Assembly: GCA_963706025.1 (NCBI GenBank)
Contig: CAVPLM010000005.1
Location: 992,001-1,056,000 of the forward strand
Direction of reading: 5' to 3'
DNA length: 64,000 nt
Origin: an uncultured Actinomycetes bacterium
GTDB lineage: Bacteria; Actinomycetota; Thermoleophilia; RBG-16-64-13
In this document: in pieces, positions 34,672-45,349 of the stretch
Numbering within the stretch: position 1 is the first letter of the stretch
How the letters are laid out: each line of letters opens with the position of its first letter
The notes under the pieces: model-generated
Databases searched by the model: none
The model's input: the letters and a program-made list of their open reading frames with translations, nothing else
Told to the model about the DNA's origin: nothing
Translations under genes and position numbers: made by a program

Positions 34672-35148
34672 GTGGAACTGTATTTCTTGAGACACGCGAA
34701 AGCCGTGTCACGCGCCGTCTGGGATCGTGACGACTCGGAGCGCCCGCTCACCGAACAAGGATGCGAGCAGGCGGCACGCGTGGCCGGCTTCATCGCCAGA
34801 CTCGGCCTCGCGATCGATGCTATCGTGAGCAGCCCGTACAAACGCGCCTACGAGACCGCCGACATCATGGCCCAGCACCTGAACATGCGGGACAGACTCG
34901 TCTCAGACGAACGCGTGGCTCCAGGCTTCCACCTGGAGGAGCTCGCCGACATCCTGCAAGACCATCCCGATGCAGGGGCAGCCATGTTCGTGGGCCATGA
35001 GCCCGACCTTTCCGACATCGTCGCCCAGCTTGTGGGGGGCCGGGTCGTTTTCAAGAAGGGGGGAATAGCGTACGTTGAATGTGCTGACGCGTCTCTCAAG
35101 AAGGCTACGCTCGTTTGGCTGGTTCAGCCGTCGGCCCTGGGGGTCTGA
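34672..35148 (+). CDS. sixA: Phosphohistidine phosphatase SixA family
   Basis: LRHAKA, RPLT..G, SSPYKRAYETA, VGHEP. Confidence 0.9.
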   Translation: MELYFLRHAKAVSRAVWDRDDSERPLTEQGCEQAARVAGFIARLGLAIDAIVSSPYKRAYETADIMAQHLNMRDRLVSDERVAPGFHLEELADILQDHPDAGAAMFVGHEPDLSDIVAQLVGGRVVFKKGGIAYVECADASLKKATLVWLVQPSALGV

Positions 35149-35149
35149 G

Positions 35150-36954
35150 ATGGAGATCGAAGCGAAATTCCGGGCTCCAGACGCAGACATGCTGGAGCGG
35201 TTGGGTGAAGCCACGCATCTGGCTGGATATCCGATCTTTGCCGGACGCACGGAGCAGTTGAGCGACACCTACTTGGACACAGAGCGTTGGCAGATGTTAA
35301 CGGCGGGTTACGCCTGCCGCCGACGCCTGGTCGAAGACCATATCCTCATCTCGGTGAAACAGGTCCTCAGCCCCGAAGACGTGGTGCATCGGCGCGAGGA
35401 ACTCCAGGTAGACCTTGCTGCGGATGTCCCTCCTTCGGAGTGGCCGGAGAGTGAGGCGCGGACCAGGGTCCTGGAGATCATAGGCGATCAGCCTCTGATC
35501 GAGATGCTCTCTCTCCGCCAGACCCGCTCGACCCGCTGGGTGGGCACGATCGACCGTCCGCTGGCCGAGATCAGCCTCGATGAAGTGAATCTGGAGCCGT
35601 CGGGGACTGTCTACCACGAGGTGGAAGTGGAGCTCATGCAGGCCGGCACGGAAGCCGACTTGGCCGCCCTGGTGGGCGAGCTGCGGACCGAGTGGTCGTT
35701 GGAGCCCGAGCCTCTGTCGAAATTCGAGAGGGCCTTCGCGGCCTCAGGGCACGGTCCTGTCCCCGAAGCCGCACAAGAAGCTCCGGAGGACGTCTCCGAG
35801 GTCGTCAGCGAGACGCCGCCCGCAGAGGTGGACGAGACGCCGCCCGTAGAGGTGGACGAGACGCCGCCCGCAGAGGTGGACAGACGCCGCCCGAAGAGGT
35901 CGCTGAACCGGCAACCGGGCGCACGCGCAGAAAGGACCGCCGCGGACGATTCCTTGGGGACGGCCTCGAAACCCTGACGAAACCCGGTCTCAGCGCCGAT
36001 GACGCCATGAGCGCGGCGGCCAACAAGCTCCTGCTCTTCCACCTCCAGCGGATGATGATGCACGAGCCGGGCACACGCGACGGGGAGGACGCGGAAGAAC
36101 TGCACGACATGAGGGTGGCGACCCGGCGGATGCGAGCGGCGTTGCGAGTGTTCGCCGACTATCTGGACTCCGCTGAATACAAGCCATTCCTGCGGCTCGT
36201 GCGCAAGACCGGCCGCGAGTTGGGCGCCGTCCGCGATCTCGATGTCTTCCGGATAAAGACACAGCTCTACATCGATTCCCTACCCCCTGAGGAGCAGTCG
36301 GGGCTCGACCCACTCATGCAAGCGTGGGCCGGGGAGCGGGAAAGGGCCCGCGGGGAATTGATCGAATACCTCGACAGCGATCGCTACCAGCGTTTCAAGG
36401 AGAAGTTCGAGCACTTTCTCCGTACCCCCGGCGCTGGTGCCGGGCCCGCCTTCGGAGCAGCCGGGGAGCCGCTTCCCACCCTGGTAGGCGACGTGCTCCC
36501 CGCGATCCTTTTCGAACGACTGTCCGGCGTGAGGGCTTTCGACCAGGTGATCACCCAGCCCGATGCCCCCCTGTCCCGTTTCCACGAGCTCCGCATAGCC
36601 AGCAAGGGACTCCGCTACACGCTGGAGTTCTTCCAGGAAGTGCTGGGGCCCGACAGCAAGCCGCTGATCGAGACGACGAAGGTCGTCCAGGACCACCTGG
36701 GAGACCTGCAAGATGCCGTGGTCACCTGCGACGTGTTGCTGGGTTTCCTTGGATCGGGCACCTGGGGACCGCCGCGTCTGACCAGGAAGGAGGGCCGCTC
36801 GCCGTTCCCGGTGAACGCTCCCGGGGTGGCCGCGTTTCTCGCCGTGAAGCAGACGGAGATCGAGACACTCATGGGGACCTTCGGACCGGTCTGGGACGAG
36901 ATCCGGTCCTCGAAGTTCAGCCAGCCGCTTTCCTCACTCCTCGGGGCTCTCTGA
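35150..36954 (+). CDS. CYTH-CHAD domain protein, frameshift at ~35882
   Basis: N-terminal EIEAKF, DTYLDT, EVEVEL and SKFER (CYTH), then LHDMRVATRRMR, LGAVRDLDV, HELRIASKGLRY and QDHLGDLQD (CHAD). Confidence 0.88.
35810..35902 (+). repeat. 24-bp tandem repeat, three full copies plus one degenerate (ETPPAEVD)
   Basis: GAGACGCCGCCCG(C/T)AGAGGTGGAC three times. The fourth copy lacks its first G. Confidence 0.9.
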
Positions 36955-38581
36955 CCGCGACCGGTAGGAACTCGATCGCCGAAGTGGACGGGCAAGGATG
37001 GGAGGATCCATCGACCTCGACCGTCAGCCTGCGGCCAAGAGCCTTCTCGACTGCTTTCGCCCGGGTTTCGATGCCCCAAAGTTCGAGCTGACCGTCCCCG
37101 CTCAGCTCTAACTGGAGAACCAGCCCCTTGGGGTCCAGGGCGCTCAGGCGCGCGTGTTTGACCACTCTCTGGTGGCTCCGGTCAAGGCCCTCCACCAAGC
37201 GGACGATCAAGCTGAGCCAGCCCACCAGCCTGCGCGCATCCTTGTCCAGCGAAGCATAGCCGGGTTTCTTGGCGCTGGGGAGTCCCTTGCGATGGAATAG
37301 TGCGGTCAGAGCCATGATCTCGATCTCCTGCTGATAGAAGCCGAGGAGATCGGCGTTACGGATCAGGTAATAGGAGTGCAGGTGGTGGTTGCCGTAAGAG
37401 AGGAAGGAACCGACGTCATGCAAAAGGGCGCCGTGGAAGAGGAGCTCGCGCTCCCACTCGCCATACTCGTGCAGACCGGCGTCACGAGCGCTGTCGAAGA
37501 GCTCGAGGGCGAGCCTTACTGCGTTACGCGCGTGCAACTCGTCGAAGTTGCAGGTCCGCCCCAGCTGAAGAACGCTTCGTTCTCGCACGGATAGCCGCTC
37601 CACATCATGGGAGCCCTGAGCCAGGTAATCCACCAGCATGCCTTCCCGGAGGCCCCCCTCGCGGATCACCCGGATCTCGGAAAAGCCCAATTCTTCGAGA
37701 AGCGTCTCCAGGATGGCCGCCCCACTGACGATGATGTCCGCTCGGTCCGGGTTGAGCCCGGAAACTCGACGGCGCTCGTCGAGAGTCATCGCGCAGAGCA
37801 TCGCCGATACCCGGCGAAGATCCGCTAGGGTGAGGAGATCCTCGCTTCCTTGAGCTCCGCGGGCCAGCGCGCGTGCCGCAACGGACGCCAGATTCTGGAT
37901 CGTCCCTGAACTGCCGAAGGCCATATCGGTGCCCAGCCGTCTCACGTGTTGCGTGGTGTGGATGGCCGCGTGACGAACGTGCTGCCGGAGCATCTGATAA
38001 CGCTCTGGAGAGACCGGCAGCGTCTCGTCCGCGCTCAGCAGTCTCGCCGTGAGTCTCACCGCACCTACACCGATCGAGTCCAGGTACTCGTACTGGTGCT
38101 GTCCACCGACGACGACCTCTGTGCTGCCGCCCCCGATATCCAGAAAGACAGCTTTCATGCTGCCAAGATGGACGAACTGGGTCAAACCCGAGTAGATCAA
38201 GCGCGCCTCCTCCCTACCCGAGATGACGTGCACCTGAAGACCCGCTTCCTCTCTCAACCGCCGTAGGAACTCCTCCTTATTGACGGCCTCCCTCGTCGCC
38301 GAGGTGGCTACGGCCACGATCTCCTCTGCCCCGTGGGATCTCGCCAGCTCGACGAAGCGACGGCAAACGAGCACGGCCCGGTCGATGGGGTGGGGCTGCA
38401 GCTTCCGGTCGACGAACTCACCCTCCCCCAGCCGCACCGCCTCCCGTTGGGCCGTCACGACCGAATAGGAGTGGTTGGGAACGAGCCGGGCGACCAACAG
38501 GCGGATCGCGTTGGTGCCGATGTCGATGAAGCCGACCGTCCGGCTCACGGCTGCTTTGGACGTGATTCCTTGCTTGTCCAC
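36917..38581 (-). CDS. ppx: Ppx/GppA exopolyphosphatase with HD-like C-terminal domain
   Basis: IDIGTNAIRL, ATSATREA, ISGREEA, DIGGGSTE, RADII, GLREG, ALLHDVG. Confidence 0.93.
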   Translation of the reverse strand: MDKQGITSKAAVSRTVGFIDIGTNAIRLLVARLVPNHSYSVVTAQREAVRLGEGEFVDRKLQPHPIDRAVLVCRRFVELARSHGAEEIVAVATSATREAVNKEEFLRRLREEAGLQVHVISGREEARLIYSGLTQFVHLGSMKAVFLDIGGGSTEVVVGGQHQYEYLDSIGVGAVRLTARLLSADETLPVSPERYQMLRQHVRHAAIHTTQHVRRLGTDMAFGSSGTIQNLASVAARALARGAQGSEDLLTLADLRRVSAMLCAMTLDERRRVSGLNPDRADIIVSGAAILETLLEELGFSEIRVIREGGLREGMLVDYLAQGSHDVERLSVRERSVLQLGRTCNFDELHARNAVRLALELFDSARDAGLHEYGEWERELLFHGALLHDVGSFLSYGNHHLHSYYLIRNADLLGFYQQEIEIMALTALFHRKGLPSAKKPGYASLDKDARRLVGWLSLIVRLVEGLDRSHQRVVKHARLSALDPKGLVLQLELSGDGQLELWGIETRAKAVEKALGRRLTVEVDGSSHPCPSTSAIEFLPVAVREPRGVRKAAG

Positions 38582-38801
38582 GTCTCCCCTTCCTCCCGAT
38601 ATCGGCAGAAGGGACTTTGCAGCAAAAGACGCATTCCTGTGTTACAAAAGGGAAAAAACCTTGGAAAGATGTAGTTAACCCGGGCGTAGGCCCCGGCGGT
38701 TTTCGGACCGGATGTCTGTTGTCGGCCCGGGGCTTCGTTTGAACCGGCGGCTCCGCTGGAACTTATGCAGAGAAAGGTCATCTGATCAGGGCGGAGGACG
38801 C

Positions 38802-39182
38802 ATGAGCGGCGAAAAGCACTTCACTGCAGCAGAGGCGGCTGCGATCGGTGAGGAATTGGGCATCGACTGGAAGCACTTCGATGTCGAGCAGTTCCGCATG
38901 GGGATGGACGTGGAGCTGGAGCATGGACTGGTCGATCCGGAGACAAACGTCTCGCAGGACGATTCACTCGTGACCGGCAAGATCGCGCTGGCCCATTTGC
39001 GGGAATTCCCGGACTACTACGACCGCCTGGAAGCGATGGAAGTGGAGGCTGACGCCTTCTGGGCAGACGCCCAAGGCTCAGAGGCCGGGCAGTCCGCGGT
39101 GTGTTCTGACGAACAGCGCGAGGAAGGCCCAGAACAAGAGAGTTGCCCTACTGAGAGCTCGAGCACGAAGGAGAACAAAGTC
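38802..39182 (+). CDS. DUF5661-like domain plus an acidic linker, in frame with the encapsulin (no stop codon)
   Basis: RBS GGAGG, IGEELGIDW..FDVEQFRMGMDVELEHG..DPETNV..DD..TGKIALAHLREFPDYYDRL..ME. Confidence 0.8.
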
Positions 39183-39989
39183 ATGTCCGACTACCTGCAG
39201 AGAGAGGACGCGCCCTTCGGCAGCGAGGTATGGGAGCTCCTCGACTCCACCGTGGCCGGGGTTGCGATGAGCCAGTTGGCGGTGCGCCGCATCGTGGAGA
39301 CCGTAGGTCCCTATGGCTACGGATTCAAGCAGCTCCCCGGGAGTGACGAAGTGGTGGCCCAACAGGACGGCGTGAGCATCGCGGCCAGCCGGGCGATACC
39401 CGTCGTCGAGTTGTCGGCGAGTTTCGTCCTTCCTCGACGAGATCTTGCTGCGTTCAAGGCCACCCGGGTCAATCCGGACCTGGGACCGGCCGTGAAGGCG
39501 GCGTTGGCCATGGCCGCTCAAGAGGACCGGATCCTGCTTGAAGGTTCGAAGAAGAACGCCGCCACGGGTCTGACCAATACGGAGGGCATCTGCAAGGTGC
39601 CGCTCAGCGACTGGACGAAGGTCGGAGCGGCTGCGGACAACCTTATCGAAGCCGTGTCCGCTCTCGACAAGGCCGGTTTCCACGGGCCGTACACCCTCGC
39701 CATTGCTCCCGACAAATACAATCTTCTGTTCCGGAGGTACCCGCAGGCTGACGGGACCGAGCTCGAACACATACGCCAGCTGGTGACGGGTGGCATCGTC
39801 AAGGCGCCGGCTTTGAACTCCGGAGCGCTGCTTGTGGCTTCCGGTCCCCAGTATGTGGCCATCTTGGTCGGGCAGGATCTCCGGGTCGGTTTTGTCGGAC
39901 CGACCGCCGACCTCGGTTACGAGTTCACCCTGTCCGAGAGCTTCGCTCTCCAGGTATATGCGCCGGGCGCCGTCTGTCTGCTCAAATAG
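39183..39989 (+). CDS. Family 1 encapsulin nanocompartment shell protein (Linocin M18, HK97 fold), 268 aa from the internal ATG
   Basis: Own RBS AAGGAG, MSDYLQREDAPF..VW, RRIVETVGPYG, AAQEDRILLEG, GFHGPYTLA, VGQDLRVGF, LSESF. Confidence 0.92.
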   Translation: MSDYLQREDAPFGSEVWELLDSTVAGVAMSQLAVRRIVETVGPYGYGFKQLPGSDEVVAQQDGVSIAASRAIPVVELSASFVLPRRDLAAFKATRVNPDLGPAVKAALAMAAQEDRILLEGSKKNAATGLTNTEGICKVPLSDWTKVGAAADNLIEAVSALDKAGFHGPYTLAIAPDKYNLLFRRYPQADGTELEHIRQLVTGGIVKAPALNSGALLVASGPQYVAILVGQDLRVGFVGPTADLGYEFTLSESFALQVYAPGAVCLLK

Positions 39990-40196
39990 GAGCTACACCC
40001 AGGGGCATACATCCGCGAGTGGATGCGCTCGAGCGGACGAGGCGAGGCTGAAGCTGACGAACTGGGTCTGGAACCCCGGCCGGCGCGCAGGTAGCGCCCG
40101 CCGGGGTCCGTTTCGGTTCCCCGGGAAGTCCGAGGTCTGGCGGACCAGAGTGACCCCCGCCCGGACGAAAGCGGAGACCCGGCCCTCGGAAACGCC

Positions 40197-40202
40197 TATA
40201 AT
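40197..40202 (+). promoter_or_regulatory. Consensus -10 box (TATAAT) upstream of the corrinoid operon
   Basis: TATAAT about 110 nt before the start codon. No clear -35 box. Confidence 0.45.
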
Positions 40203-40311
40203 CAAGCGAGTCGGTCTCCCGGCGTCACCGGCAAGGCGACATGGCGACGCCGCCTGACCCCGCGGACACCAGTCCATCGCTGACCTAAACAGAGCACAAG
40301 GAGGACTGATC

Positions 40312-41367
40312 GTGCGGTGTGACCAGATGTCGTCACAGGAACGTTGGGAAGCTTTGGTCCGGGGGGACCCGCTAGACCGCGTGCCTTGCCTGCAGTTCAT
40401 CCTAGGCCACACGGCTGTAGTCAATGGCAAGCCCATCGCGAAGGTCTATGACGACGCGGCGGCAAGTCTCACCTGTCAGCGCAATGCCATGCAGATGTAC
40501 GGCCATGACGGCTTGATCTTGCACGGCTGGGCCAACGCCGGCGGCGCGGAGTTCGGAGGCGAGATCGAGTTCCCCTACCGTAAGTACACGGGTGCGCCCA
40601 TGATGAAGCGCAACCCGGTGCAGAACGAGGACGACGCCTGGAATCTGAAGGTACCTGAGGATCTCACCGCGGTGGGGACCATCCCGGTGGCCCTCGAGTT
40701 CTCCCGGCTGCAGTACGAAGCGGGGATGCCGGTGACGGTCCAAGTGGGCTCCCCCCTCACCTGGGCGGGTTCGGTGTGCGGCGAGGAACGGCTCATGCTC
40801 TGGATCATCAGGAAACCCGACCTGGTGCACCATGTGCTGAGAGTGATCACCGATTTCATCCTCCAGAAGTCCGACTATTGGATCAAGGAGTTCGGGGCGG
40901 AGCGCATCATGGCGTTCGACCTCTGCATCGAGACCAACAAGCTCTATTCCCCCAAGCAGTTCGAGACCTTCGCCTTCCCCTATCTGAAGGAGATCCACGG
41001 CCACCTTACCCAGCAGGGAGTGGGCATCTTCTTGAGTCACATCTGTGGGGAACAGAACAAGAACCTGCCCCTATGGTCCCAGCTCGCGTACGGGAAACGG
41101 GGCATGATCAGTGTGGGCAAAGAGGTCGCTCTCTCCACGGCGAGTGAAGCCTTCCCCAAGAACGTGATCATGGGCAACGTCGATCCGGTGACCGTGCAGG
41201 AGGGCACGCCGGAAGAGGTGCTTGCCCTCTGCAAGGACTGTATCGAAGAAGGCAAAGGCCATCCCGGCGGATACGCCCTCATGACCGGGTGTGAGGTGCC
41301 CCCTCAGGCGCCGCCGGTCAACGTAGGTCAGATGGTCACAGCCTGTCGCGAGTACGGACGCTACTAA
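40312..41367 (+). CDS. MtaA/CmuA (URO-D fold) methylcobamide methyltransferase
   Basis: DRVP, SPKQFETF, Zn motif HICG...GCEVP, GNVDP. Confidence 0.88.
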   Translation: MRCDQMSSQERWEALVRGDPLDRVPCLQFILGHTAVVNGKPIAKVYDDAAASLTCQRNAMQMYGHDGLILHGWANAGGAEFGGEIEFPYRKYTGAPMMKRNPVQNEDDAWNLKVPEDLTAVGTIPVALEFSRLQYEAGMPVTVQVGSPLTWAGSVCGEERLMLWIIRKPDLVHHVLRVITDFILQKSDYWIKEFGAERIMAFDLCIETNKLYSPKQFETFAFPYLKEIHGHLTQQGVGIFLSHICGEQNKNLPLWSQLAYGKRGMISVGKEVALSTASEAFPKNVIMGNVDPVTVQEGTPEEVLALCKDCIEEGKGHPGGYALMTGCEVPPQAPPVNVGQMVTACREYGRY

Positions 41368-41412
41368 CTACCAGACTACGAGCCACCAGAAGCCAACAGG
41401 AGGTAGGGAATA

Positions 41413-42060
41413 ATGGCAGACGAGACCACCATCCTCGGGCAGCTCAAGCAGGCCGTCATGGACGGCGACGAGGAAGCGGCCGTGCGGGCGGCCGATGACG
41501 CGGTGGCCACCGGGATCGATCCCCAGAAAGCCATAATGGAGGGTCTGGCCGCCGGCATGGCCGAGATGGGCCGCCTCTACGAGGAGGGCGAGTGCTACGT
41601 GCCGGAGTTGATGGTGTCATCGGAGGCGCTCTACGCCGGCCTGGGCCTCCTGCGGCCACTGCTGGTGGGCTCCGCGGCCGGAGGTGAGAACAAGGGAGTG
41701 GTCGTGATCGGGGCGGTACAGGGTGACATCCACGACATCGGCAAGAACCTGGTCAAGATGATGCTGGAAGTGAACGGCTTCGAGATCCACGACCTGGGCA
41801 GGGACGTGCAGATGGAACTGTTCATCGAGGAGGCGCAACGGGTAGACGCCGACCTCTTATGCCTGTCGGCCCTGATGACCACCACCATCATCGCCATCAA
41901 GGACTTCATGCCGGAGTTCAAGACCAAGCTCCCCACCACCAAGATCATGATCGGGGGTGCGCCTCTCAACCAACAGTTGGCCGATGAATGGGGAGCCGAT
42001 GGCTACGGTGGCAACGCCATGGAGGCGGCCCGGGTCGCGCTCCGGCTGATGGGAACGTGA
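41413..42060 (+). CDS. Corrinoid protein (MtaC/MttC-like)
   Basis: GDIHDIGKNLV, DLGRDV, LSALMTTT, IGGAP. Confidence 0.93.
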   Translation: MADETTILGQLKQAVMDGDEEAAVRAADDAVATGIDPQKAIMEGLAAGMAEMGRLYEEGECYVPELMVSSEALYAGLGLLRPLLVGSAAGGENKGVVVIGAVQGDIHDIGKNLVKMMLEVNGFEIHDLGRDVQMELFIEEAQRVDADLLCLSALMTTTIIAIKDFMPEFKTKLPTTKIMIGGAPLNQQLADEWGADGYGGNAMEAARVALRLMGT

Positions 42061-42069
42061 GGAGGCTCC

Positions 42070-42390
42070 GTGGCCACGGTTGAGATACACGCCGGGGTCT
42101 GCGGCCACATCACAACGGTGAGGGCCACCGCCGGCGAAGGCTACAAGGTGCGGGTCACGTTGGAAAGCACGTGCCCCCACGTGTGGAAGATCTCTGGGGA
42201 TGTGGACGAGGTGGACGCCCTCCAGCAGATCGGCCTGCGGGATGGGCTGCCGCCCGCGCTCGAGGCCGCCTACACCCACTGCGTGCACGCCGCCTGTCCG
42301 GTGCCGTCCGGGTTGATCAAGTCGATCGAGGTGGCGGCCGGCCTGGCTTTGCCTGAGGACGTTTCCATGCGCATCAGCAAGGAGGAATGA
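42070..42390 (+). CDS. Small Cys/His-rich protein (DUF6951-like)
   Basis: GVCGHITTV, STCPHV, HCVHAACPVPSGLIKSIEVAAGLALP. Confidence 0.75.
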   Translation: MATVEIHAGVCGHITTVRATAGEGYKVRVTLESTCPHVWKISGDVDEVDALQQIGLRDGLPPALEAAYTHCVHAACPVPSGLIKSIEVAAGLALPEDVSMRISKEE

Positions 42391-42396
42391 CAGATC

Positions 42397-43455
42397 ATGT
42401 GGTGCGAGACGATGACAAGCGCGGAACGGATGGGCGCCCTCATGAAGGGCGAAAGACCCGACCGCGTCCCGGTGATCCCTTTCGTGTTCGGGCATTGCGC
42501 CGTAGTCTGCGGGGAGCCGATCGCCCGCGTGTTCGCGGACGCCGAACAGAGTTTCCGCTGCCAGCTGCTCGCAGCGGAGATGTACGGCTACGACGGCGGG
42601 CCTCTCTATGCCTATGCCTCAGCTGGAGGTTGGGAGTTTGGGGGCGACATCGAGTTCCCTGTCAAGAAGTACTCGGGCGCAACGATAGTCACGCGTACCC
42701 CCATACAGACCGAGGATGACGTCTATGCGCTCCAGGTCCCTGCCGACATCACGAAAGCGGGTGCTCTTCCCATCGCCCTGGGGGTCGCCCGCAGGCAGGC
42801 CGAGCACGGCATGCCGGTGAGCATGCAGATCGGCTCCCCCCTTACCTGGGCCGGCTCTGTCATCGGCGAAGAGCGCATGATGACCTGGCTCATCAAGAAG
42901 CCCGAGCTGGTACATCAGGTACTCGACAAGGTGGCGGAGTTCGTCATCAAGGTGGCCGAGCACTACGCCCGGGAGTTCGGGGCCGAGAAGCTCATGGCGT
43001 TCCACGGCGCGGCCACGGAATCAAACGCGCTCATCTCGCCCAAGCAGTTCGAGACGTTCGTGCTCCCCTATCTGCAGAGGATCAACACCCGAGTGCTGGA
43101 GATAGGTGTGGGCACTTTCTTCATCCACATCTGTGGGGAGCAGAACAAGAATCTCAAGTTCTGGCAGCAGGTCCCCGTGACCAAGCAGACTATCCTCAGC
43201 TTCGGCCGGGAGGTGGACCTGTCCACGGTCATGGAGATGTTCCCCGACCAGATCATCGCCGGGAACGTCGACCCGACCCTCATCCAAGAGGGCAAGCCGG
43301 AGGAAGTGCTGGCCCAAGCCAGGGAGTGCATCGAGACGGCCAAGGACCACAAAGGCGGGTACGTACTCATGGCCGGCTGCGACCTGCCCCCGCACGCGCC
43401 GCCGGTTAACGTCTTCCAGCTGGTCAAGGCCGCTCGCGAGTTCGGGAGATACTAG
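42397..43455 (+). CDS. MtaA/CmuA (URO-D fold) methyltransferase, paralog of 40312-41367
   Basis: PDRVPVIPF, QIGSPLTWAGS, HICGEQNKNL, GCDLPP. Confidence 0.88.
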   Translation: MWCETMTSAERMGALMKGERPDRVPVIPFVFGHCAVVCGEPIARVFADAEQSFRCQLLAAEMYGYDGGPLYAYASAGGWEFGGDIEFPVKKYSGATIVTRTPIQTEDDVYALQVPADITKAGALPIALGVARRQAEHGMPVSMQIGSPLTWAGSVIGEERMMTWLIKKPELVHQVLDKVAEFVIKVAEHYAREFGAEKLMAFHGAATESNALISPKQFETFVLPYLQRINTRVLEIGVGTFFIHICGEQNKNLKFWQQVPVTKQTILSFGREVDLSTVMEMFPDQIIAGNVDPTLIQEGKPEEVLAQARECIETAKDHKGGYVLMAGCDLPPHAPPVNVFQLVKAAREFGRY

Positions 43456-43456
43456 C

Positions 43457-45349
43457 GTGGCCGATCCCGCCGTCACCTTCCAGCCTTCGGGGAGGCGAGG
43501 GCCGGCGGCACCCGGACAGAGTCTACTGGAGGTGGCCCGGGGTCTGGGAGTGGAGATCGAGAGCGTCTGCGGCGGCAAGGGGACCTGCAAGAAATGTCGC
43601 GTTCGCATCGAGTCGGCGGCGAACGGCGTCTCGGCGCCCACGCCGGTCGAGGAGAGCGCCCTGAGTCCCGAGGCCATGGCTGCGGGGACGCGGCTGGCCT
43701 GCCAGGCGCGCGTCGCCGGTGACGTGCGGGTCTTCGTGCCCGAGGAGAGCCGTCGCACTCAGCAGATCGTGCGCAAGGAAGCCGGCGAGCGCACCGTGCC
43801 CGTCGATCCGGCCATCAGGTGCTACCACATCACTCTCGAGGCGCCGACCTTGGAAGACCCGGTCGCCGACGCCGAGCGGCTGTCGGCCGCACTCGAGCGG
43901 GAGCACGGAGTCGCCGGTCTGACGTTCGATCTGGAGCTGCTGCAGACGCTTCCCGGTGTCGTCCGCCGCGCCAAGTGGGACCTCGTCGCAGTCGTGTGGC
44001 GCGGTGAGAGGGTCGTGGACGTGCGGCCCGCGGCAGACCATCGCCGGATCCTCGGCCTCGCGCTCGATGTGGGCACCACCACTATCGCCGCGTATCTCAC
44101 CGACCTCAACAGCGGAGAGGTACTGGCTACCGAATCCGCCATGAACCCGCAGGTAGCGTTTGGCGATGACGTCATCGCCCGCCTCCATCATGTGGCCCAC
44201 GATCCCGACGGCCTCGCCGAGCTACAGGGAGTGGTGGTAGCGGAGGTGAATAGCCTGGCCGCAAAGGCCGTGGAGCGGAGCGGGGCTGCGCTCACCGACA
44301 TCCTCGATGTGGTGATGGTGGGGAACACTGCCATCCACCATCTCTTCCTGGGCCTCGATACTCGCTACCTGGGCGTGGCGCCCTTCGTTCCCGCGGTCCA
44401 AAACGCCGTCGACACCCGGGCCGCCTCCATCGGCCTCACCTTCCACCCCAATTGCCGCCTGCACGTGCTTCCCGTGGAGGCAGGTTTCGTAGGAGCCGAC
44501 AATGTGGGGGTGCTGATAGCCGAAGAGCCCTACAAGCAGGACGAGATCCTGCTCATCATCGACATCGGCACGAACGGCGAGCTGGTGCTCGGCAACCGGC
44601 AGCGCCTGCTCTCCACCTCCTGTGCCACCGGACCGGCCCTGGAAGGGTCCCACATCGAGTTCGGCATGCGGGCCGCCCCCGGGGCTATCGAGCGCATACG
44701 GATAGAGCCGGGCACCTTCGATGTACGCTTCAAGGTCATCGGCCTGGAGGACTGGCACACGAGCTACCCGGCCGACGAGGTGGGAGCCCGCGGGATCTGC
44801 GGATCGGGCATCGTCGAAGCCGCCGCCGAGATGCTCAAGGCGGGCGTGATCTTGCCCAACGGCAATCTCGATCCCGCCCTGCGCCATGAGCGGGTGATCT
44901 TGGAGGATGGCAGGCCGCGGAAGTTCGTGATCGCGTGGCCGAAGGAGACGGCCATCGGCCGCAGCATCACCGTGTCGCTCAAGGACATCCGAGCCATCCA
45001 ACTGGCCAAGGCCGCCCTCAGGGCGGGGGCCGAGATCCTGCTGCGTACCTATGGGGTCGAAAAACCGGACCGGGTGATCCTGGCCGGGGCTTTCGGCACC
45101 TTCATCGATAGACACCACGCGCTGGCCATCGGGATGTTGCCGGATTGTGCCCCGGAGGTGGTCACTTCTGTCGGCAACGCCGCCGGCGACGGAGCCCGCT
45201 TCGCCCTCCTCAACATGGGGAAACGCCGGGAGGCGGCCTGGGTGGCCGACAAGGTTGAGTACGTGGAGTTGGCCACCGACCCCGACTTCCAGCGGGAATA
45301 CGTCAAGGCGATGTACTTCAACCCCATCTCGGACATCCCGGAGGAATAG
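43457..45349 (+). CDS. RACo/RamA-type ATP-dependent corrinoid activator (2Fe-2S plus ASKHA)
   Basis: CGGKGTCKKC..RLACQ, DVGTTT, NPQVAFGDDVIAR, DIGTNGE, GICGSG, LAGAFG, GNAAG. Confidence 0.93.
   Translation: MADPAVTFQPSGRRGPAAPGQSLLEVARGLGVEIESVCGGKGTCKKCRVRIESAANGVSAPTPVEESALSPEAMAAGTRLACQARVAGDVRVFVPEESRRTQQIVRKEAGERTVPVDPAIRCYHITLEAPTLEDPVADAERLSAALEREHGVAGLTFDLELLQTLPGVVRRAKWDLVAVVWRGERVVDVRPAADHRRILGLALDVGTTTIAAYLTDLNSGEVLATESAMNPQVAFGDDVIARLHHVAHDPDGLAELQGVVVAEVNSLAAKAVERSGAALTDILDVVMVGNTAIHHLFLGLDTRYLGVAPFVPAVQNAVDTRAASIGLTFHPNCRLHVLPVEAGFVGADNVGVLIAEEPYKQDEILLIIDIGTNGELVLGNRQRLLSTSCATGPALEGSHIEFGMRAAPGAIERIRIEPGTFDVRFKVIGLEDWHTSYPADEVGARGICGSGIVEAAAEMLKAGVILPNGNLDPALRHERVILEDGRPRKFVIAWPKETAIGRSITVSLKDIRAIQLAKAALRAGAEILLRTYGVEKPDRVILAGAFGTFIDRHHALAIGMLPDCAPEVVTSVGNAAGDGARFALLNMGKRREAAWVADKVEYVELATDPDFQREYVKAMYFNPISDIPEE

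Follow-up and report, generated by a model that had tools for sequence, protein, structure and literature searches.

We analysed a 64,000-nucleotide stretch of DNA (hereafter the window) from contig CAVPLM010000005.1 of an uncultured bacterium of the Thermoleophilia, in which a single gene appears to join a small domain of the DUF5661 family to the shell protein of a family 1 encapsulin. An earlier note, made from the letters of the DNA alone, had described one frame of 395 codons holding a DUF5661-like domain, an acidic linker and a complete encapsulin, the last preceded by a ribosome-binding site and an ATG of its own. In positions of the window, the locus is laid out as follows.

38793..38797, plus strand: Shine-Dalgarno-like GGAGG, 4 nt 5' of the first start codon (ATG at 38802)
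38802..39989, plus strand: whole fusion gene, 395 codons and a stop codon, predicted protein of 42.3 kDa
38802..39077, plus strand: DUF5661 domain, residues 1-92, four helices, with the Pfam match at residues 13-80
39078..39182, plus strand: acidic linker, residues 93-127, Pro/Ala/Gly-rich, with a sequence and length that differ between relatives
39168..39173, plus strand: internal Shine-Dalgarno-like AAGGAG, 9 nt 5' of the internal ATG
39183..39185, plus strand: internal ATG (Met128), first residue of the encapsulin part and candidate second start
39183..39989, plus strand: shell part (family 1 encapsulin), residues 128-395, 268 aa, 28.3 kDa as a product on its own

Matches to curated family models bear out this layout. 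The frame 38802-39989 translates without a stop into 395 aa, and residues 13-80 match PF18905 (DUF5661) in Pfam with an E-value of 4.9e-23 and 81.7 bits against a cut-off of 27; with a score above the gathering threshold and the family-invariant residues present, the predicted domain is a DUF5661 member. The linker has an isoelectric point of 4.1 and contains two Cys. Behind it, residues 130-382 match PF04454 (Linocin_M18; E 8e-67, 225.6 bits, cut-off 24.3, profile positions 2-253 of 253), and residues 132-394 match the NCBIfam model NF041155 (encap_f1; E 3.3e-65, 220.1 bits, cut-off 100, positions 1-261 of 261). Such a full-length match above a curated cut-off identifies the predicted shell part as a family 1 encapsulin. 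At E <= 1e-10 it also matches 37 solved encapsulin chains, which implies a fold of the HK97 type. The best of these are 9i8e (E 4.9e-35), EncA and 6nj8, with E-values of 1e-31 to 5e-35, ahead of the T. maritima shell at 4.5e-25, and the weakest of the 37 is the P. furiosus chain 2e0z (E 5.5e-13). EncA and 6nj8 belong to shells of larger size (T=3/T=4). Among the nearest shell relatives that lack the fusion are proteins labelled Brocadiaceae and Planctomycetota. An AlphaFold2 (AF2) model of the full-length protein, built from 20 sequences, was poor, with a mean predicted local distance difference test (pLDDT) score of 51.7 that was lowest in the linker, and it was not used. The genome of the window encodes one DUF5661 domain and one encapsulin, and both are in this gene.

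A fusion read from a single contig may be an artefact of assembly, in which separate DUF5661 and encapsulin genes have been joined by an indel error. The earlier note had raised this possibility, since the contig is rich in indels and one of them would end DUF5661 at the TGA at 39107. The window does carry a probable frame error elsewhere, where CYTH and CHAD genes are split relative to one 638-aa open reading frame (ORF) of a same-genus genome, and a long-read-like metagenome-assembled genome (MAG) has frameshifts inside its own copy of the fusion (locus L019). However, a search of 5.8 billion clusters recovered the fusion in 17 protein clusters including that of the window (382-404 aa, 54-100% identity, both Pfam domains), so that the same open frame occurs in 16 further clusters from several sources. 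An independently assembled metagenome contig from the same species (L110) has a linker identical to that of the window. Contigs of run X1, which may be the source sample of the window, tile 38700-39779 with 0-1 differences and zero gaps, and a contig of 4.1 kb from run X6, which belongs to another study, covers 38705-39996 and thus the whole gene with 41 substitutions and 0 gaps. Both cross the linker, where the earlier note had proposed that reads be mapped. The fusion is also open in all four species genomes of the window's genus. Together these findings refute the artefact, to which we give almost no credence, and settle the question of the TGA against a joining indel. A sediment-metagenome contig of run X2, about 95% identical elsewhere, has at 39063-39154, in the linker, a diverged stretch of exactly equal length; the linker evolves fast with its frame preserved. 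At 39744/39750 the X2 contig also carries paired +1/-1 indels.

Alignment of the 17 fusions shows a highly conserved DUF5661 part, a conserved shell part and a divergent linker. The N-terminus M-S/D-G/E-E is kept in all 17 clusters, and the column of Met128 holds Met in 16. Counted from just after a conserved F/Y-W/H (residue 88 in the window protein), the linkers are 27-49 residues long and rich in Pro, Ala and Gly, with 5-14 Asp plus Glu against 1-5 Lys plus Arg. The two Cys singled out in the earlier note are not conserved; their number varies from 0 to 2 per protein, and we rejected a role for them on this ground. In a tree of 70 encapsulins, the 17 fused shells and two further proteins (P0018 and P0019) form one clade with a Shimodaira-Hasegawa-like approximate likelihood ratio test (SH-aLRT) value of 100 on a long branch of length 0.4, which points to one origin of the fusion. 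P0018 (268 aa) and P0019 (245 aa) are shell-only gene calls that are near-identical to the fused proteins P0012 and P0017 over the shell; they could be gene calls from the internal start, products of truncated contigs or true unfused variants. Judged on these sequence comparisons, the fusion is real, conserved and of single origin, and with a non-shell domain in frame at the N-terminus of the shell, conserved among relatives, the gene is a predicted cargo-fused family 1 system.

The distribution of the fusion is patchy. Encapsulin is absent from the 20 other genomes of the window's family that were searched. A second fusion subclade is found in a MAG labelled as a delta-proteobacterium (L019 in genome G041), and the fusion occurs in none of 40 relatives of that MAG. 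This pattern suggests that the fusion may have spread horizontally. In the G041 MAG the fused gene (L019 6001-7195) lies in three frames, with one shift in the linker and two in the shell part. Errors of long-read assembly are the most likely cause, because the near-identical P0012 is intact in other sources.

N-terminal fusions to family 1 shells have been described; they are luminal, and the tethers of the known examples, of about 35 residues, resemble the one here (PMC8346489, PMC11664910, 10.1101/085266). The available portions of two surveys name Flp in Archaea and a dihaem cytochrome c in anammox bacteria (Andreas & Giessen 2021, PMC8346489; 2024 review, PMC11664910), and they also mention 90 unassigned family 1 systems. 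In those portions of the fusion-encapsulin literature DUF5661 goes unmentioned, with the reservation that supplementary tables may list such proteins without comment, and a full-text literature search likewise returned no mention of DUF5661. This agrees with the earlier note, to which the domain was not a described cargo. The window gene is thus, by its predicted domains, a third N-terminal fusion type of family 1, with a cargo domain that is undescribed as cargo.

The gene resembles both known types in part. Like the Flp fusions of Archaea (Pyrococcus furiosus, Sulfolobus solfataricus type), it has a small helical domain in frame at the N-terminus of a family 1 shell and a flexible tether, and in the available texts the Flp domain, too, is presumed to be taken inside the shell as it assembles and needs no targeting peptide of its own (PMC8346489, PMC11664910). 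In contrast, the domain here is DUF5661 and not ferritin-like, it lacks a match to any solved fold (best Z 4.5, see below), and its hosts are bacteria; Flp-fused shells moreover cluster apart as a group of their own, according to the portion available of a 2016 preprint (10.1101/085266). The dihaem cytochrome c fusion of anammox Planctomycetes (cEnc) shares the N-terminal attachment to a bacterial family 1 shell, and its linker, which that preprint describes as some 35 residues long with abundant Pro, Ala and Gly (10.1101/085266), is similar as well. Unlike cEnc, the window protein contains no CxxCH motifs, has no signal peptide noted and has no NIR-HAO partner gene nearby, and its domain belongs to another family.

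Two-gene systems in which EncFtn or Flp precedes the shell offer a further comparison, since they place a cargo of about 100 aa directly upstream of a shell start with a ribosome-binding site. Three such loci were found. In L111 (8791-9972), whose shell is one of the nearest unfused ones, a 119-aa rubrerythrin/ferritin-like gene with an LSVGNIK tail lies directly upstream of the shell gene, in the manner of an ordinary two-gene Flp-type system. In L014 (genome G030) and L015 (genome G038), from high-GC (guanine plus cytosine) genomes of the same class, an EncFtn-like cargo with the tail GSLGIGDLRG or GSLGIGSLRR takes the same place before an unfused shell. The cargos of these systems are separate proteins ending in a targeting peptide (GSLGIGxLR, LSVGNIK), whereas the window gene has neither a stop codon between its parts nor a targeting peptide.

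No separate cargo was found. The genes adjoining the fusion gene are ppx and an MtaA-like gene, and Pfam confirms the earlier observation that no DyP, ferritin-like or hemerythrin gene is adjacent. The same holds for targeting peptides of the LxIGSL type: a genome-wide scan of C-termini, with a motif that we take to be the targeting-peptide motif, gave 39 loose matches where about 59 are expected by chance, and the sole strict match lies in an ordinary thiamine pyrophosphate (TPP) enzyme, so that nothing convincing emerged. The fused DUF5661 domain is therefore the only candidate cargo predicted in the genome.

DUF5661 is chiefly a family of free-standing proteins. PF18905 matched 2789 proteins at E <= 0.001 (HMMER, 1.84 billion representatives). 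The best 150 of these are nearly all 91-300 aa long, with a few tandem duplicates and one of 697 aa, and they end just after the last helix, without a tail resembling a targeting peptide. In species genomes there are at least 585 DUF5661 loci, in bacteria and archaea; labels among those listed include Patescibacteria, Chloroflexota, Actinomycetota, Bacillota, methanogens, Thorarchaeota and Hadesarchaea. Among the best 80 of these loci, L019 alone is fused. The standalone proteins, of about 91-200 aa, carry the same domain and the same invariant residues as the window fusion. They differ from it in having no encapsulin nearby and varied neighbours: the top recurring neighbour family, a generic ATP-binding cassette (ABC) ATPase, occurs in 9 of the other 79 loci and gives no lead to an association. 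DUF5661 is an ancient, strongly conserved small protein, normally free in the cytoplasm.

Standalone copies also occur close to the window's lineage, in eight relatives, seven of them from its family and one from another family of the same class. In five of the eight (loci L005, L008, L010, L012 and L013, from sister genera) the gene lies between a 113-aa ORF and a class II fructose-bisphosphate aldolase gene (fba). One named MAG shares this DUF5661-fba synteny and, together with the labels of the nearest DUF5661 clusters, places the organism of the window probably in the Actinomycetota. In the window's genome the corresponding region (G000, contig C5, 185123-187350, outside the window) leaves only about 95 nt at this ancestral slot, with no DUF5661 in it. 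The G000 locus occurs again on contigs C28 and C23; this suggests that strains are mixed or that there is contamination, for which the genome's own figure is 7.3%. The window domain is 57-74% identical to the standalone copies in relatives and up to 79% identical to those of other phyla. A tree of the domain (149 rows, 94 columns) supported 3 of 146 branches, and neither this tree nor the pairwise identities separate an origin from the resident copy from an origin in which the domain arrived with the shell.

The residues that define the family are retained in the fusions. In 87 diverse members G34, E38, H41, Y72, Y73, R75 and L76 are invariant, and nearly invariant positions include Q30, R32, E40, T48, D54, T58, K60, H65, E68, D71 and E80. 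Of these positions only Q30 varies at all among the 17 fusions, and even there it is nearly invariant. With such conservation the fused domain probably keeps its native activity. An AF2 model from the 87 sequences has a pLDDT of 93.6 and four helices (9-19, 28-44, 55-68 and 72-91). Its fold has no counterpart in the collections searched: Foldseek against the Protein Data Bank (PDB) returned nothing at E <= 0.001, and the highest Z that VIA-align gave among 48,161 chains was 4.5, which lies in the noise range of helical proteins. The DUF5661 profile matched only a chance EFPDYY string among PDB sequences and none of the PHROGs families, and in the ESM Atlas it found clusters of its own family and none beyond. 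The domain contains an E38-x-x-H41 string, and neither Foldseek nor VIA-align retrieved a ferritin-like chain.

Modelled as a homodimer, DUF5661 scored 0.68 (runs of 0.01, 0.71 and 0.68), where the best control scored 0.05. Of 30 solved homodimers 20 attained the mark of the domain, as did 1 of 23 proteins whose solved structures are single chains. At least 11% of contacts are shared between runs, with a partner pLDDT of at least 56. The domain thus probably works as a symmetric dimer. The modelled interface includes the conserved E40, H41, T48-V50, K60, I61, A64, E68, D71, Y72, R75, L76 and E80 and is compatible with a site formed between the two subunits. At this predicted interface invariant Glu, His, Asp, Tyr, Arg and Lys side chains cluster and may form a metal- or anion-binding site; the actual chemistry, metal or anion, is a guess. 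The earlier note had proposed a metal site from its Glu/His/Tyr motif; the conservation of that motif stands, in 87 members, and a relative with a known metal site was found neither by fold nor by sequence.

We consider it likely that the gene encodes a self-loading system, in which tethered, probably dimeric DUF5661 domains are carried into the lumen of the shell. The N-terminus of a family 1 encapsulin faces the lumen. The full-length protomer would bear its DUF5661 domain there on a flexible acidic linker of about 35-45 residues, and because the N-terminus points inwards, assembly of the shell would enclose one domain per full-length protomer with no need of a targeting peptide. The only DUF5661 copy of the lineage would in this way have been relocated from the cytoplasm into the shell, so that its activity would take place inside the compartment. 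A shell-only protomer of 28 kDa may well arise in addition, from the Shine-Dalgarno-like motif and the ATG with which the shell part begins; shells would then be mixtures, and the ratio of the two starts may set the cargo load.

Several findings weigh against this interpretation. An encapsulin lies within 6 kb of none of the 79 standalone loci (the best 80 minus L019), and none of the eight relatives with a standalone DUF5661 has any encapsulin; as far as the genomes indicate, DUF5661 is not a general cargo family and is never linked to encapsulins outside the fusion clade. The search for the two domains together, which the earlier note had suggested, therefore succeeded for fusions (17 clusters, four of four genus genomes, one clade) and failed for adjacency. 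In addition, DUF5661 has no metal-binding relative by fold or sequence in the searches above, one of the three dimer runs failed outright at 0.01, and P0018 and P0019, within the fused clade, might be true unfused forms.

Alternatively, DUF5661 may not be cargo at all but may serve assembly or structure, much as the N-terminal delta (scaffolding) domain does in HK97-type capsid proteins. As a dimer it would cross-link protomers, set the size of the shell or stabilise it, with the true cargo, if any, encoded elsewhere. The dimer model, which passes its controls, would suit such a role, and the long branch that separates the fused shells from other encapsulins would mean that the shell has changed since the fusion. 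There are also precedents in the available portions of the literature, where N-terminal scaffolding fusions are reported in HK97-type capsids (PMC11664910) and the anammox fusion domain altered particle size and cargo loading (10.1101/085266). Nevertheless, we regard this explanation as improbable: DUF5661 stands free in hundreds of genomes without encapsulins, every invariant polar residue is kept in the fusion, which argues that the domain has retained an activity of its own, and the genome offers no other cargo candidate.

Whether the shell part is also translated on its own is a more evenly balanced question. The separate ribosome-binding site and start that the earlier note ascribed to it can be read directly in the sequence as AAGGAG, nine nucleotides and ATG, and A(A/G)GGAG-N9-ATG is invariant in the four genomes of the genus, with varying codons on either side. 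Purine-rich GGAG-like motifs stand at the same distance in L019, L101 and L106, which represent the second subclade (56-59% identical proteins), and the loose end of a relative's contig in run X2 has GGGGAGG shortly 5' of the same ATG. A GGAGG-type motif also precedes the first start in three same-genus genomes. Computed against a generic anti-Shine-Dalgarno sequence for six fusions, the duplex energy is -8.3 to -9.1 kcal/mol at the internal start versus -9.3 to -11.5 kcal/mol at the first. In all six genes tested the internal ATG has the best Shine-Dalgarno match among in-frame ATGs, with a score equalled at only 3-8% of positions per gene. Since motif and ATG are kept in every fusion with readable DNA, internal initiation is plausible, and we put initiation at Met128 at roughly even odds on these sequence features; control of cargo loading by the two starts has about the same chance.

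The reservations here concern the motif itself. Between 4 and 25% of linker positions score equally well, as the many Glu and Gly codons of the linker make purine runs of this kind fairly common; the four sequences from the genus do not count as independent; in P0017 the Met is shifted; and the motif and ATG could be a relic of a two-gene ancestor. It is quite possible, if a little short of an even chance, that the full-length protein alone is made and every protomer bears cargo, the internal motif and ATG being leftovers of an operon of DUF5661 and shell genes that lost a stop codon. A small gene, a short spacer with a ribosome-binding site and a shell gene make up the layout of the ordinary two-gene systems (L111, L014, L015), and the purine-rich codons of Glu, Gly and Lys produce Shine-Dalgarno-like strings by composition, as the fractions of 0.04-0.25 within the linkers indicate. 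Yet the rest of the linker has diverged almost completely, whereas the motif and Met persist in subclades that are 56-60% identical overall, and within the genus the hexamer is invariant amid varying flanking codons.

Taken at its fullest, the self-loading interpretation would make DUF5661 a dimeric metal- or anion-binding enzyme with its active site at the dimer interface, moved wholly inside the shell, with two in-frame starts setting the ratio of cargo-bearing to bare protomers. This combination as a whole is doubtful. If true, it would be the first encapsulin in which alternative initiation programmes the cargo load, and it would open a first way to the function of a domain whose range extends from bacteria of the Candidate Phyla Radiation (CPR) to Asgard archaea.

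A third fusion type would in itself widen the known range of contents enclosed by family 1 shells. With shell, tether and cargo in one frame, the gene would offer a compact one-gene system for study and engineering, in which the second start is possibly a built-in loading control. The fusion also provides a lead on DUF5661, a domain that occurs in a great many bacteria and archaea and is strongly conserved, with identities of up to 79% between phyla. Its reaction or ligand may gain from confinement, as the apparent relocation of the sole copy into a shell hints.

The neighbours of the fusion gene are those of a polyphosphate cluster on one side and of a corrinoid methyltransferase set on the other. 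The nearest upstream gene was identified by Pfam and is given for context only.

36917..38581, minus strand: ppx (Ppx/GppA phosphatase), divergent neighbour of the fusion gene

Upstream lie ppk1, a truncated His-phosphatase, CYTH, CHAD and this ppx, so that the fusion locus is indeed divergent from ppx and the polyphosphate cluster, as had been noted from the letters. The storage of metal or phosphate that the earlier note considered in view of these genes did not hold up as far as polyphosphate is concerned. The ppk/CHAD/ppx neighbourhood is kept within the genus only, and in the second fusion subclade the upstream genes are those of an L,D-transpeptidase and a thioredoxin-reductase-like protein, with a convergent aquaporin gene on the downstream side; because the context is missing there, we rejected the link to polyphosphate storage.

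The upstream cluster has irregularities of its own. CYTH (35075-35977) and CHAD (35692-36954) lie in different frames and have about 285 nt in common, the ORF with the His_Phos_1 match (34672-35148) covers only profile positions 1-69 of 194, and in the same-genus genome G002 one ORF of 638 aa (L113, 4503-6419) spans the CYTH-CHAD region. The overlap, the single ORF in G002 and the partial His_Phos_1 point to probable indel errors in the window assembly.

A scan of 38400-40400 for promoters and terminators gave no promoter-like site and no more terminator-like sites than chance would give. In one metatranscriptome, two contigs of 151 nt fall on 39204-39481, too little to show transcription or a transcript end. 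Downstream, positions 40312-45349 carry two genes for MtaA-like methyltransferases of the uroporphyrinogen decarboxylase (URO-D) family, a B12-binding corrinoid protein, DUF6951 and a RACo reductive activator. This corrinoid methyltransferase set is conserved in the genus (L112-L114).

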